A stretch of DNA of 64,000 nucleotides from an uncultured Chloroflexia bacterium (GCA_963711405.1 CAVQDZ010000001.1:90703-154702); one strand, 5' to 3'; shown: positions 40,593 through 46,712, counted from the stretch's first letter. Translations and numbers: made by a program. Notes: a model not told the origin generated them from the sequence alone.

Positions 40593-40658
40593 GTATCTCT
40601 CGACGTGAAAGCCCGCGCGAATGTTCCTTCGGCCCACGTGTGGCATTCTCCGCCTGTA

Positions 40659-41237
40659 ATGGCACTAAGACATCTGTTTCACCCGTCCACTCCCGCCACG
40701 CCTCCAACGGAGCCGGCCCCGCCGATTCCTGTCGATCAGGCGGAAACGGAGACCATCCGCAAGATCGTCCGGGCGCTCGAAGCGGTCGACCCAGAGCGGC
40801 GCAAGTTCCTCGCCGGCTTTGCTTACGTGCTCGCGCGCGCGGCCCACGCCGACCTCGACATCACCGACGACGAACAGGCGGAGATGGAGCGCGTCGTCTC
40901 GAGCATCGGCGGCCTGCCGATGGCCCAGGCTGTGCTCGTCGTCGAGATCGCTCGCAACCAGAGCGAGCTGTACGGCGGAACCGAGGACTATGTCGTCACG
41001 CGCGAGTTCAACAAGACCGCCACCGACGAGGAGCGGCGCGCCGCCGTCGCCGCGTGCTTCGCGGTTGCCGCCACGGACCACGAGATCACGGCCGAGGAGT
41101 ACGCCGAGCTGACCGAGATCGCGGACGAGCTTGGACTGTCACGCGAGGAGTTGAACGTGATCCGCAACGAGCATCGCGATCAGCTGACGGCGATCAAGAA
41201 GATGCGCGCGCAGCAGGCTGGTCAGGCGGCCGAGTAG
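40659..41237 (+). CDS. TerB family protein
   Basis: Duplicated A.AD..I...E motif (AHADLDITDDE; AATDHEITAEE...IADELGL). Confidence 0.8.
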   Translation: MALRHLFHPSTPATPPTEPAPPIPVDQAETETIRKIVRALEAVDPERRKFLAGFAYVLARAAHADLDITDDEQAEMERVVSSIGGLPMAQAVLVVEIARNQSELYGGTEDYVVTREFNKTATDEERRAAVAACFAVAATDHEITAEEYAELTEIADELGLSREELNVIRNEHRDQLTAIKKMRAQQAGQAAE

Positions 41238-41240
41238 CCC

Positions 41241-41963
41241 TCAGGCGGTCGGGTCGGCCGGAGTGCGCATGAGGTCTGCCTCGGGCAGGAACAGGTAGCG
41301 GTACATGAGCGCCGCGATGCCCGCGCCGACGAGCGGGCCGACGATCCACACGTAGCTGTTGTCCCAGATCCCGGTCACGGCCGCTGGACCGAACCAGCGC
41401 GCTGGGTTCATCGCAGCCCCGGTCAACGCGCCACCCATCAGGATGTCTGCGCCAACGGCCAGGCCGATCGCCAGGCCGCCGACCTTTGGCGCGCGCGGAT
41501 CCACGGCCGTGCCGAAGACCGCGAGCAGCAGGACCACGGTCAGCACGCCCTCGATGACCGTGCCCGCGAGCGGGGTTACGGCGCCGAACAGGCGCGGGAT
41601 GCCCAGCGTCTGGCGAAAGGTCTCGTCGGGAATGACGGCCCACAACAGCCACGCGGCGACCATGGCGCCAATCAGCTGGGCCAGGACATAGGCGAGGCCA
41701 CGGCGCCACGGGATCTGGCCGGCAACCCAGACGGCAAAGGTCACGGCTGGGTTGAAGTGGGCGCCGCTGACGGCGCCCAGGGCGCTGACCAGGACCGCGA
41801 GCGCGACGCCGTGAGCCAGGGCGACTACTACGAGACTTGCCGCCGGGTCAACGGGATGGCCTGAGTTAGTGAGTTGCAGTGCGCCAATCGCGCCGATGCC
41901 GATGAAGAAGAAGAGGAATGTTCCGACCATCTCGGCGATGACGCCATTCCAACCGCTGCGCAC
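41241..41963 (-). CDS. Aquaporin / MIP family channel
   Basis: Two NPA motifs (SGAHFNPAVT, AAMNPARWFGPA), AE..GTF and WVYWxGP-like segment. AGGGAG SD before GTG 41963. Confidence 0.93.
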   Translation of the reverse strand: MRSGWNGVIAEMVGTFLFFFIGIGAIGALQLTNSGHPVDPAASLVVVALAHGVALAVLVSALGAVSGAHFNPAVTFAVWVAGQIPWRRGLAYVLAQLIGAMVAAWLLWAVIPDETFRQTLGIPRLFGAVTPLAGTVIEGVLTVVLLLAVFGTAVDPRAPKVGGLAIGLAVGADILMGGALTGAAMNPARWFGPAAVTGIWDNSYVWIVGPLVGAGIAALMYRYLFLPEADLMRTPADPTA

Positions 41964-42027
41964 TTCGTTCTCCCTCTTTGCTATCGCTTGCCATACTACG
42001 CATGCCCAAACGTCACCGGGGAGGCAC

Positions 42028-43005
42028 ATGGCACTGCTTCGTGCGCCGGCGTCCACTGACATGCGACGCCAAGACACGACATCGCGCATCGCGCGCGACG
42101 ACGACAAACGACTGCGTCTGAACGACGGTCGCTGGCTCGGCTATCGAGAGTCCGGCGATCCGGCCGGCGTGCCCGTGCTCTTCTTCCATGGCTTCGGGAC
42201 GACGCGCGTCGTGTGCCCAGCCGACGAGACCGCCCGCCAGCTGGGCGTGCGCCTCCTTGCCGTCGACCGACCCGCCCTGGGCCTGTCGACGCCGCTGCCC
42301 GGCCGGCGCCTGCTCGACTGGCCCACAGATGTGCGCGAGCTGGCCGATCAACTGGGTTTGCAGCGATTCTCGATCGTCGGCTGGTCCGGCGGCGGCCCCT
42401 ACGCGCTCGCCTGCGCCATGCGCCTGGCCGACCGGATCGAATCGATCGCCATCGTCAGCGGCGCGGCGCCGCTCGCAGGCACGACGCGGACGGACTACCT
42501 GCGTCGCTTCGATCGCAACGCGATATTTGCTGCGGGCAAGGCACCGTGGGTCATCCGCATCGCGATGTGGCATTGGGGCCGCGGCCAGCGGCGTGACGCG
42601 GAGGCGTACTTCGACAAGTCCGTGGCTGAGATGTGTGCAGCGGACCAGGAAGTGCTGTCGGCGCCCGAGCTGCGCAGCGCGATGATCGCGAACTCGACTG
42701 AGCTGTACCGCCAGGGCGGACGCGGCATGTACGACGAGGCGCTCGTCCTGGCTCGGCCGTGGGGCTTCGACCCATCCGATATCAACGTCCCGGTAGAGGT
42801 GTGGCACGGCGCGCGCGACAAGGTCGTGCCCATGGGCATGTCCTCACACCTGGCCGAGTCGATTCCGGGCGCCTCACTCCGGCTCTACCCGGATGAGGGA
42901 CACCACCTGCTCTACCGCCGCTGGCCGGACATCCTGCGCTCGCTCATCAAGCCTGAGCTCGCCCCGACACCGCCGCTGTTCATGGCCGCTGGAGCGACCT
43001 CGTAG
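42028..43005 (+). CDS. Alpha/beta hydrolase
   Basis: FFHG, DRPALG, GWSGGGPY, WHG..D, EGH. GGAGG SD. Confidence 0.9.
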   Translation: MALLRAPASTDMRRQDTTSRIARDDDKRLRLNDGRWLGYRESGDPAGVPVLFFHGFGTTRVVCPADETARQLGVRLLAVDRPALGLSTPLPGRRLLDWPTDVRELADQLGLQRFSIVGWSGGGPYALACAMRLADRIESIAIVSGAAPLAGTTRTDYLRRFDRNAIFAAGKAPWVIRIAMWHWGRGQRRDAEAYFDKSVAEMCAADQEVLSAPELRSAMIANSTELYRQGGRGMYDEALVLARPWGFDPSDINVPVEVWHGARDKVVPMGMSSHLAESIPGASLRLYPDEGHHLLYRRWPDILRSLIKPELAPTPPLFMAAGATS

Positions 43006-43028
43006 ACCGAACGGTCCCCGCATATTCG

Positions 43029-43180
43029 TTACCGATGGCACTGGCCCGCCGCGCGTCGTACAACGAAACTTCTGTTCGAAGCGTGATCGGGTGCTGCGTT
43101 GCCGACCATGCGAACGGTGTTCATTCCGCACCGGTTGTCGCAGCCAGCCGGTGAAACGGCGGGCCGGGTGTCGTGGGTCA
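43029..43180 (+). ncRNA. Candidate structured non-coding RNA (~150 nt, multi-stem, family unassigned)
   Basis: Closing stem 43035-43051/43157-43174, stem 43072-43117 and stem 43129-43153. Six G-U wobbles all favour the plus strand. Lies between convergent genes. Confidence 0.5.
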
Positions 43181-43181
43181 T

Positions 43182-43208
43182 CCGGCCCGCTTCTCGTTTA
43201 GCGGCCGG
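43182..43208. terminator. GC-rich hairpin, possible terminator between convergent units
   Basis: CCGG(C)CCGCT-loop-AGCGGCCGG inverted repeat with no clear U-tract. Confidence 0.35.
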
Positions 43209-43221
43209 AAGCGACCCGGAC

Positions 43222-44330
<1,109 letters not shown>

Positions 44331-44334
<4 letters not shown>

Positions 44335-46673
44335 TACGGCCAGCTCCAGCCTGAGATCTCCGGTTGGTCCTCGCCGAACTCGCGCGCGTGCGCGGCGGCG
44401 GTCAGGCGCGCGTCGACCATCTGCTGCCGCAGCGCCGCCGCCCGCTCGCCCAGCCCCGGCACACGGTCGATCACGTCGATCACGAGATGGAAGCGATCCA
44501 GATCGTTACGCAGGGTCATGTCGAACGGCGTCGTGACCGTGCCCTCTTCCTTGTAGCCGCGGACGTGCAGGTTGGCATGGTTGCGCCGCCGGTAGGTCAG
44601 CCGATGGATGAGCCAGGGGTAGCCGTGGAAGGCAAAGATGATCGGCTTGTCGTGCGTGAACAGGGCATCGAACTCGCGGTCGGGCATGCCGTGCGGATGC
44701 TCCGTGTCCTGCTGCAGACGCATCAGGTCGACGACGTTCACGAAACGGACCTTGAGTTGCGGCAGGTGCTCGCGCAGCAGGGCCGTGGCGGCCAGCGCCT
44801 CAAGCGTGGGCACATCGCCGGCACAGGCCATGACCAGGTCCGGTTCGCCGTCGCCGTTGCTCGCCCAGTCCCAGATGCCCAGGCCGCGCGTGGCGTGCAG
44901 CACCGCCTCGTCCATGGCCAGGAACTGCGGGGCCGGCTGCTTGCCTGCGACGATGACGTTCACGTATTGGCGCGAGCGCAGGCAGTGGTCGGCAACTGAC
45001 AGCAGCGTGTTGGCGTCGGGCGGCAGGTAGACGCGCACGACCTCTGCCTTCTTGTTCGTGACAACGTCCAGGAAGCCCGGATCCTGGTGGCTGAAGCCGT
45101 TGTGGTCCTGGCGCCAGACGTGGCTCGAGAGCAGGTAGTTGAGTGACGCGATCGGCCGCCGCCAGGGAATGCCGTTGCTGATCTCCAGCCACTTGGCGTG
45201 TTGGTTGAACATCGCGTCGACGATGTGGATGAAGGCTTCGTAGCAGTTGAAGAGGCCGTGGCGGCCGGTCAGCAGGTAACCCTCGAGCCAGCCTTCGCAC
45301 AGGTGCTCGGAGAGGACCTCGATGACCCGGCCCTCGCGCGCCTGGTGCTCGTCTGTTGGCAGGAGCTCGCCCTCGAACTGGCGATCGGTTGTCTCGAAGA
45401 CGGGCGTCAGCCGGTTCGAGTCAGTCTCGTCGGGCCCGAAAAGGCGAAAGTTGTCCGGGTTGCGATCTATGACGTCGCGCAGGAACTGGCCCAGCACCCG
45501 CGTCGCCTCCGCGCTCGACTTGCCCGGCTCGACCTTCACGCCGTAGCCGCGAAAGTCGGGCAGCGCCAGGTCGCGCAGCAGCTCGCCGCCGTTGGTGTGC
45601 GGGTTGGCCGACATGCGTCGTGCGCCCTTTGGCGGAAAATCGGCCAGCTCCGCGATCAAGCGGCCGTCGTCATCGAACAGCTCGTGTGGCCTGTACGAGC
45701 GCAGCCACTCGTCGAGTTGCTCGAAGTGTTCCTTGTTGCCGCGCACGTCCGACAGCGGAACCTGGTGCGCGCGCCAGGTGCCTTCCATGGGCTTGCCGTC
45801 AACCGACTTTGGCCCGGTCCAGCCCTTTGGCGAACGCAACACGATCATCGGCCAGCGCGGCCGGGCGTCGTCGCGGGCGCTGCGCGCCTGGGCCTGGATG
45901 GCAGAGATCGAGTCGAGTGCCTGGTCGAGAGCGGCGGCGAACTCGTTGTGCATCTTGACCGGCTCGTGGCCGGAGACGAACAACGGCTCGTAGCCATAGC
46001 CGTTGAACAGGTCACGCAACTCCGTCTCCGGAATGCGCGCCAAGAAGGACGGGTTCGCGATCTTGTAGCCGTTCAGGTGCAGGATCGGCAGCACGGCGCC
46101 GTCATTGACCGGGCTCAGGAACTTGTTCGAGTGCCACGAAGCGGCCAGCGGGCCGGTCTCTGCTTCACCATCGCCGACGACGCAGAAGACAACGAGGCCA
46201 GGGTTGTCGAACGCCGCGCCGTAGGCGTGCGCGAGCGAGTAACCGAGCTCGCCGCCCTCGTGAATCGAGCCGGGGACCTCAGGCGTGACGTGGCTGCCAA
46301 CGCCGCCTGGGAATGAGAACTCGCGGAACAGCGTGCGCATGCCCTCGTCGCCTGCGCCGACGGCCGAGTAGCGCTCCGACCAGGTGCCCTCGAGATAGGC
46401 GTTGGCCACTGCCGCCGGGCCACCGTGGCCGGGTCCTACGACCATCATCGCGTCCAGGTCGCGCGTCTTGATCGCGCGGTCGGCGTGCGCCCAGATGAAG
46501 TTCAGCCCGGGCGTCGTGCCCCAGTGGCCGAGCAGGCGCGGCTTGATGTCGCTCGGCTCGAGCGGCCTGCGCAACATGGGGTTGTCGAGCAGATAGATCT
46601 GCCCTACAGAGAGGTAGTTGGCGGCACGCCAGTAAGCGTCGATTACGGCCAGCTCGTGGTCGTCGAGGGGCAT
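44331..46673 (-). CDS. xfp: Xylulose-5-P/fructose-6-P phosphoketolase
   Basis: [46 protein letters not shown]. Confidence 0.97.
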
Positions 46674-46712
46674 CGTCAACAGATCGCCGGGCTGCGCTGG
46701 AGAGTCACCGGG

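Follow-up and report, generated by a model that had tools for sequence, protein, structure and literature searches.

We examined a 64,000-nucleotide window of DNA from an uncultured Chloroflexia bacterium (GCA_963711405.1 CAVQDZ010000001.1:90703-154702), part of a 3.14 Mb, 84%-complete genome, and focused on a 216-nt gap (43006-43221, counted from the first letter of the window) that separates two convergent genes, an alpha/beta-hydrolase gene on the plus strand and an acetate kinase gene on the minus strand. A conserved non-coding element spans window positions 43005-43199 on the plus strand; it probably represents a new regulatory small RNA, restricted to its genus and neither 6S-like nor a dormancy RNA. 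A sequence-only reading of the same DNA had pointed to a structured RNA on the plus strand between convergent genes without assigning a family, a view that our analysis supports, and all of the strings that it quoted are present where it placed them. The genes that frame the element are as follows:

41869-43005, plus strand: alpha/beta-hydrolase gene, the 5′ neighbor of the element
43222-44292, minus strand: acetate kinase gene (ackA), the convergent 3′ neighbor
44331-46679, minus strand: phosphoketolase (XFP) gene, next after acetate kinase

The hydrolase gene (plus strand, ending at 43005) and ackA (minus strand, ending at 43222) both turn their 3′ ends toward the gap, as the sequence-only reading had described. 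Its argument that the site cannot be a 5′ untranslated region (UTR) is right, yet the position is exactly that of the hydrolase 3′ UTR, an option that it had omitted. In a terminator scan, the terminal hairpin of the element, P5, is the first terminator 3′ of the hydrolase stop codon, and none lies between the two; because no terminator intervenes, the element would be at least the 3′ UTR of that mRNA.

Conserved hairpins and a terminator on the plus strand

The element can be divided into two short 5′ blocks, a variable center, and a 3′ module composed of a hairpin (P4) and an intrinsic terminator (P5). All of its parts lie on the plus strand:

43005-43016, plus strand: block a, the palindrome GACCGAACGGTC, which overlaps the hydrolase stop codon
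43031-43042, plus strand: block b, ACCGATGGCACT, a 5′ motif that is invariant in the comparison
43042-43051, plus strand: genome-specific extension TGGCCCGCCG, complementary to 43157-43166
43056-43078, plus strand: candidate hairpin P2 with the A-rich loop ACGAAACTTC (RNAalifold, 6 sequences)
43081-43111, plus strand: helix P3, with an outer stem GCGTG (43081-85)/CATGC (43107-11) and an inner stem TCGG (43087-90)/CCGA (43102-05)
43112-43128, plus strand: pyrimidine-rich stretch GAACGGTGTTCATTCCG, 5′ of P4 and predicted to be mostly unpaired, a candidate contact region
43129-43153, plus strand: hairpin P4, composed of CACCGGTTG, the loop TCGCAGC, and CAGCCGGTG, near-invariant in homologs
43159-43190, with a tail to 43199, plus strand: intrinsic terminator P5, with a 12-bp stem (43159-70/43179-90), the loop TCGTGGGT, and the tail TTCTCGTTT
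43183-43209, plus strand: the "separate hairpin" of the sequence-only reading, CCGGCCCGC...GCGGCCGG, an alternative pairing of the P5 3′ arm

The 3′ module is 80 to 91% identical between this genome and its homologs, compared with 57 to 72% for the neighboring coding DNA. P4 and P5 are invariant including their loops, the center between block b and the pyrimidine-rich stretch is variable, and the 5′ part of the element is ≈70% identical within the subgroup to which this genome belongs. In a model-based alignment of 17 sequences, the positions assigned to P4 and P5 pair in 97.9% of alignment cells, as opposed to 21 to 45% in slid controls, and none of 500 shuffles reaches the observed pairing, covariation score, or number of double changes. 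P4 alone pairs in 94.8% of cells with a pair probability of 0.94; its core and loop are invariant, while the base pair at its foot covaries (AU in 5 sequences, GC in 4, and GU in 4). This hairpin had been drawn by the sequence-only reading and is confirmed as almost invariant in homologs. P5 pairs in every cell (100%), including 14 G-U cells, two A-U swaps, and one C-G swap, and it has the makings of an intrinsic terminator, namely a GC-rich stem-loop followed by a T-rich tail, with T-rich tails also present in the homologs. The terminator scan matched it on the plus strand at 43158-43191 plus the tail TCTCGTTTAG, in a search that returned two sites against 0.2 expected.

The helices of the center are more variable in sequence. 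RNAalifold analysis of six sequences recovered P3 and, more weakly, P2, with a compensatory change in 9 of 20 pairs. The outer four base pairs of P3 are paired in all six aligned relatives and its inner stem covaries; in the subgroup that includes this genome, the outer helix is the same and the inner hairpin differs in sequence in seven of seven members. P2 is predicted with compensatory changes of its own and carries a semi-conserved loop motif, A(A/G)ACT(C/T), although we grade it as weak, and it has one mismatch in this genome. The pyrimidine-rich stretch keeps its position in relatives, where it reads GTGTTCGTTTCG or GTTTACCTC, and is only semi-conserved in sequence. The long interrupted stem proposed by the sequence-only reading overlaps P3 and survives in part: its inner CGTG/CATG pairing (43082-85/43107-10) is the one kept in all six relatives, whereas its outer CTGTTCG/CGAACGG pairing is found in just 50% of cells.

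Upstream, block b is strikingly constant, with A43031, G43034 to C43039, C43041, and T43042 identical in all 19 rows of our alignment. Block a is less uniform. The palindrome that the sequence-only reading had noted just upstream occurs as GACCGAAYGGTC in 10 of the 19 rows and as a one-base variant in another; four rows carry a different palindrome of like pattern, GKCCAATYGGCC, and the remaining four have none at the site. Its arms pair in 84% of cells with A-U/G-C swaps, and it may form a 4-5 bp hairpin or be bound by a protein. The block a 12-mer occurs at three sites genome-wide, the other two of which lie in sequence that appears by eye to be coding. The same reading had likened the palindrome to a DosR box, a motif known from mycobacteria, and had suggested that the RNA could be a stress or dormancy small RNA. 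This proposal rests on the mycobacterial motif, and the model-positive loci in named genomes all bear labels of Chloroflexota lineages; we do not retain it.

Several observations indicate which strand is read and that the product is not a protein. Folding energy exceeds that of dinucleotide-shuffled controls on the plus strand (z = -3.04, with 1 of 200 shuffles as good) and on the minus strand (z = -3.47, 0 of 200). The sequence-only reading had asked for this comparison; because both strands exceed their shuffles, folding energy alone picks no strand. The G-U cells of the stems would be A-C mismatches on the minus strand and the T-rich tails are found on the plus strand only, from which we conclude that the element is read from the plus strand. 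The sequence-only reading had noted that all six wobbles are G-U on the plus strand, which suggested selection at the RNA level, and in the homologs the G-C/G-U changes in the stems fit this strand only. A small protein starting at the invariant ATG of block b, which in this genome begins a frame of 39 codons reaching into P4, was considered and rejected, as the frame is not kept in homologs: relative to P4 it is 0, 1, or 2, and it stops before P4 in 8 of 19 reads. Among nine contexts with a divergent upstream gene, neither strand holds a shared reading frame. Because no frame is conserved, we regard the element as non-coding.

These data also bear on the idea that the conserved palindromes act as DNA, as operator or recombination sites bound by proteins, with no RNA involved. 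Block a, P4, and P5 are near-invariant palindromes whose stems vary little, an a-like palindrome recurs elsewhere (see below), and the gene content around the element varies among genomes, all of which would suit such sites. Yet the variation that the stems do show is limited to changes that keep plus-strand G-U pairing, the inner stem of P3 covaries through wholly different sequences, and the T tail follows P5 on one strand only. Moreover, there is one copy per genome, we noticed no integrase or transposase among the few flanking open reading frames (ORFs) scanned, and plasmids, phages, and viral contigs yielded nothing. We therefore consider a purely DNA-level role quite unlikely.

Conserved secondary structure with covariation is thus found for P4, P5, P3, and P2, through few independent events. 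This last point weighs against the small-RNA reading of the element, as do the facts that most P4 and P5 pairs are invariant, that many alignment rows are close kin, and that P3 is not part of the minimum free energy (MFE) structure of this genome's own sequence, in which its pair probability is 0.003.

Competing pairings of the terminator stem

The fold proposed by the sequence-only reading was organized around a closing stem of 17 bp between the 5′ and 3′ regions of the RNA. Across 19 sequences, this stem pairs in 61.8% of cells, compared with 60.7% in shuffles, and so is not conserved. Sequence invariance of both strands alone accounts for the persistence of its 7-bp distal part, ATGGCAC/GTGTCGT. 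The 10-bp proximal part, TGGCCCGCCG/CGGCGGGCCG (43042-51/43157-66), exists in this genome only: seven of the 10 positions are unpaired in 12 to 18 of the 19 rows, and the other three pair in 12, 16, and 19 rows. The 3′ strand of the closing stem is in fact the 5′ arm of the conserved terminator P5 (43159-43190), and the "separate hairpin" listed above consists of the terminator 3′ arm plus downstream bases, the downstream half of which is not conserved in homologs.

Which of these structures is favored depends on where the transcript ends. If the RNA stops at the T tail, its MFE structure is the terminator fold (-85.5 kcal/mol, pair probability 0.98); the closing-stem fold reaches -79.2 kcal/mol, and forcing 43042-43051 to pair costs 6.3 kcal/mol. 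The closing-stem fold becomes the MFE, and the separate hairpin appears in it, only when bases beyond the tail are included. On this modeling, the genome-specific extension TGGCCCGCCG would create the closing stem and act like an anti-terminator.

This competition raises the question of a conditional terminator, an orphan riboswitch-like attenuator in which block b, together with the 10 extra bases in this genome, would pair with the 5′ arm or apical loop of P5; whenever that pairing won, transcription would read through as antisense into the convergent ackA or Zn-dependent alcohol dehydrogenase gene. The complementarity amounts to 17 bp here (43035-43051/43157-43174), and the MFE with downstream bases is the closing-stem fold. 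Block b is complementary to the apical part of P5 (GATGGCCC/GGGTCATC or ATGGCAC/GTGTCGT), and neither varies; a divergent homolog (G008) alters both sides compatibly, and a convergent gene always abuts P5. Against this stand the confinement of the long anti-terminator to this genome, the 6.3 kcal/mol by which the terminated transcript favors the terminator, and the duplex energy between block b and the loop, which is unexceptional in most homologs: it is the best of all windows in 4 of 20 homologs and is matched by at most 3 of 200 shuffles in only 6 of 20. We recognized no conserved junction resembling a ligand pocket and no Rfam riboswitch match, and there is no same-strand downstream gene in any context examined, as a riboswitch or 5′ leader would have. 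On balance, a conditional terminator seems doubtful. A related pseudoknot between block b and the terminator loop was also tried and rejected, as duplex energies are not consistently better than those of other windows or shuffles; it survives only within the switch described next.

One version of this idea is a self-contained switch, in which block b would compete for the apical terminator, P2 and P3 would sense a signal, and the outcome would be either a stable small RNA ending at 43199 or antisense read-through. We think this improbable. If true, the read-through would enter convergent fermentation genes, ackA-xfp here and alcohol dehydrogenase in relatives, and this uncultured Chloroflexota lineage would have a new antisense controller of the orphan riboswitch-like kind.

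Distribution of the element

The gap is recognized by blastn in relatives of the same genus, and we built a covariance model of the 3′ domain (P4+P5), termed R1, along with a broader model, R2. Collecting homologs in this way, as the sequence-only reading had suggested, shows the element to be conserved, non-coding, and present in one copy per genome. R1 finds exactly one copy in 10 of 32 genus genomes (a set that includes the unpublished G004, which has no match); nine of these score 81 to 95 bits and the divergent G008 scores 40 bits. Among genus genomes that are at least 90% complete, three of eight contain the element, and it is missing from one single-contig genome.

Beyond the genus, R1 returned five matches at 28 to 32 bits in 150 family genomes, which on inspection are ordinary hairpin-plus-terminator sites after apparent gene ends; the P4+P5 model has no convincing match in the ≈140 family genomes other than those of the genus. 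R2 yielded two doubtful matches in 150 order genomes (out-of-genus matches span 28 to 34 bits overall) and none in 42 genomes of a sister family. A blastn search of 201 family genomes gave matches in 26, but a wider distribution was rejected on this basis because the matches beyond the genus are chance pieces of 20 to 35 nt, mostly within apparent genes. An exact-pattern scan of species-representative genomes produced 75 loci, just eight of which pass R1, in records titled as Chloroflexota, Chloroflexia, Limnocylindrales, or Anaerolineaceae metagenome-assembled genomes, which places the host in an uncultured Chloroflexota lineage and not among the actinobacteria. A metagenome scan added 14 further loci, of which seven are new distinct full-length forms. 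Plasmid and phage collections gave no match, and two pattern matches in viral contigs both fail the covariance model. A repeat or mobile element was rejected given the single copy per genome, the three sites of the block a 12-mer, and the lack of any accepted match in the plasmid, phage, and viral collections.

The G008 form (L044:1501-1720, on the minus strand of that locus) differs in P4, P5, and their loops but retains a b-like GGCCCTAT motif directly 3′ of a U1-like block, a sequence described in the next section. By blastn, this form has no close relatives in the genus.

Genomic context and transcription

The genes around the element differ among genomes, as summarized here:

This genome: hydrolase gene (plus) upstream, ackA (minus) downstream
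G013 and G214: hydrolase gene (plus) upstream, Zn-dependent dehydrogenase gene (minus) downstream
G006, G015, and G021: divergent TusA/DsrE-type gene upstream, dehydrogenase gene (minus) downstream
G001: divergent TusA-type gene upstream, ackA (minus) downstream
G003: 355-aa ORF (plus) upstream, ackA (minus) downstream
Five metagenome forms: divergent TusA-type gene upstream, assigned by sequence likeness

The downstream gene is convergent in every context examined and is either ackA or a Zn-dependent dehydrogenase gene. Upstream, a divergent TusA/DsrE-type gene adjoins nine distinct homologs, with Pfam confirming the assignment in four of the nine. Because this upstream gene is divergent, the plus-strand unit would have to start by itself at these loci, presumably from a promoter of its own. 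Blocks a and b accompany the 3′ module whether it lies behind a hydrolase gene, behind the 355-aa ORF, or with no same-strand gene in front.

We favor, at about an even chance, the reading that the element is the gene, or a 3′-UTR-embedded copy, of a lineage-specific structured small RNA of ≈165 to 195 nt that is encoded on the plus strand and ends in a conserved intrinsic terminator. Transcription would begin near block a or b and run through the terminator to give a single unit. Where the upstream gene is divergent, it would have its own promoter; in this genome it would be made at least as the 3′ UTR of the hydrolase mRNA, from which it might then be freed.

The leading alternative is that the element is no more than a 3′ UTR and terminator cassette, in which P4-P5 would end the upstream plus-strand gene and insulate it from the convergent gene, and the 5′ blocks would be UTR or operator DNA rather than parts of a trans-acting RNA. 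Such a cassette is suggested by the start of the element at the hydrolase stop codon, by P5 being the first terminator thereafter, by the negative promoter scan described below, and by the short distance (at most ≈25 nt) between P5 and the stop of the convergent gene in homologs read by eye. Two metagenome contigs, L133 (260-760) and L137, point the same way, in that P4-P5 occurs there alone behind an ORF that looks Hsp20-like by eye: the TGA of this ORF falls inside the P4 loop, P4-P5 follows, and then comes a convergent gene with an ackA-like 3′ end. Because the module occurs there without the 5′ half, it can serve simply as a terminator. Against a cassette, the nine distinct homologs with no same-strand upstream gene retain both 5′ blocks along with the loop motif of P2 and P4-P5, the stems and loops vary far less than termination would allow, and P3 covaries. 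We regard the cassette as a possible explanation, on the unlikely side.

The two contigs with P4-P5 alone weigh against the small-RNA reading, and so does the search for a promoter. No sigma-70-like promoter was found in 42700-43400 by a scan that does not cover promoters of this phylum, and no conserved promoter lies between blocks a and b in the 19-row alignment. In that same alignment, the CATATT hexamer that the sequence-only reading had taken for a -10-like element is not conserved.

Between the divergent TusA/DsrE gene and the RNA, two extra conserved blocks are present:

L003:1330-1420, L005, L007, L004, L128, L135, L131, and L136, and also L140 (G002): U1 (GAGTGYCC...GTGCCATCTGAC) and U2 (GGGCCATYCGG, an a-like palindrome)

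In a genome without the RNA, U1 and a palindrome like block a stand before a protein-coding gene as well; U1 and U2 may be shared promoter or operator DNA.

Other features of the neighborhood concern the flanking genes themselves. The acetate kinase and phosphoketolase (XFP) genes stand in tandem on the minus strand (43222-46679), as in a phosphoketolase pathway operon, and in relatives a Zn-dependent alcohol dehydrogenase gene fills the convergent slot instead. On the 5′ side of the hydrolase gene, within window positions 40605-42107, lie a TerB-domain gene on the plus strand and a major-intrinsic-protein (aquaporin-type) gene on the minus strand.

Possible mode of action and significance

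If the element is a small RNA, it would act in trans as a regulatory RNA. The P4-P5 module may provide termination and 3′-end stability and perhaps a docking site for a protein, and candidate target contacts are block b and the pyrimidine-rich stretch just upstream of P4, which is predicted to be mostly unpaired. Two negative results count against this picture: this genome, which is 84% complete, yielded no gene for Hfq or CsrA, and a search of it for 11-mer complements yielded no meaningful target.

A 12-nt perfect complement of block b lies in the 16S-23S spacer (G000:C6:2076), 20 nt past the 16S 3′ end, where a rough estimate of chance expectation is ≈0.4 matches. We judged this candidate rRNA-spacer target to be a chance match and rejected it; it is unchanged in G006, the one relative checked that shares the spacer but has a different block b. 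In G237, two 16S 3′ ends (L156 and L158) are followed by unrelated spacers, so the genome may have a second type of rRNA operon or the bin may be contaminated.

In the literature that we searched, no regulatory RNA is reported for this uncultured soil Chloroflexota group. A single-copy, strongly conserved RNA with defined helices offers a concrete target for metatranscriptome mining, and the element would constitute a new Rfam family. Its 3′ module outranks the neighboring protein genes in conservation, is reused behind an unrelated gene, and might serve well in high-GC hosts as a natural terminator or stability element. Beyond this, the element simply joins the ranks of lineage-specific small-RNA candidates.

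Comparison with known RNA families

Searched against Rfam 15, the whole window gave no match at gathering score, in keeping with the absence of a family assignment in the sequence-only reading. That reading had also called the stem-bubble-stem layout loosely 6S-like, and the element could in principle be the lineage's divergent, RNA polymerase-binding 6S-type RNA. Its size is about right, similar in length to 6S RNA, its 5′ and 3′ regions can pair in this one genome, whose MFE has a closing stem, and none of the 32 genus genomes is matched by the Rfam 6S model, so that the 6S RNA of the lineage is still unlocated. The 6S family (RF00013, gathering score 46.4 bits) is, however, absent among matches up to E 10 in 42900-43350 and genome-wide, and the closing stem on which the likeness depends is not conserved. 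The consensus fold is a series of separate hairpins ending in an autonomous terminator hairpin, rather than a rod with a central bubble. A housekeeping distribution is likewise lacking: the element is patchy within its genus (10 of 32 genomes, 3 of 8 at ≥90% completeness, and absent from one single-contig genome) and is found nowhere else in the family or order. A 6S identity fails because model score, fold, and distribution all disagree with it, and we consider it highly improbable.

The best sub-threshold Rfam matches are to the Xanthomonadaceae small RNA asX1 (RF02235) and to Chloroflexi-1 RNA (RF01698); in both cases the alignment covers a GC-rich hairpin and, after it, a terminator-like one. 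The asX1 model scores 30.4 bits at the window locus (30.4 to 36.2 bits when 14 homologous loci are included) against a gathering score of 70, skipping 52 model positions, and Chloroflexi-1 scores 22.1 bits (22.1 to 24.5 bits with the same loci) against 80. We rejected membership in either family and attribute the likeness to generic hairpin content.

A different kind of resemblance is to antisense RNAs controlled by a riboswitch or attenuator, such as the B12- or SAM-controlled antisense transcripts in Firmicutes. The element shares with them a structured leader, a terminator, and a convergent gene beyond it, as well as, in this genome, an alternative pairing that competes with the terminator. 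It differs in that no known aptamer matches and that homologs lack the long anti-terminator.

An established general class comprises bacterial small RNAs that act in trans and carry a Rho-independent terminator at the 3′ end, some of them derived from 3′ UTRs. The element differs from this class in that conservation peaks in the 3′ hairpins, loops included, and not in an obvious single-stranded seed, and in that Hfq and CsrA were not found in this genome. In other respects, it resembles the class: it is non-coding, 150 to 200 nt long, lineage-restricted, and composed of several hairpins, with an internal hairpin and a U-tailed terminator hairpin at its 3′ end, and it occurs either alone or directly after a coding gene.

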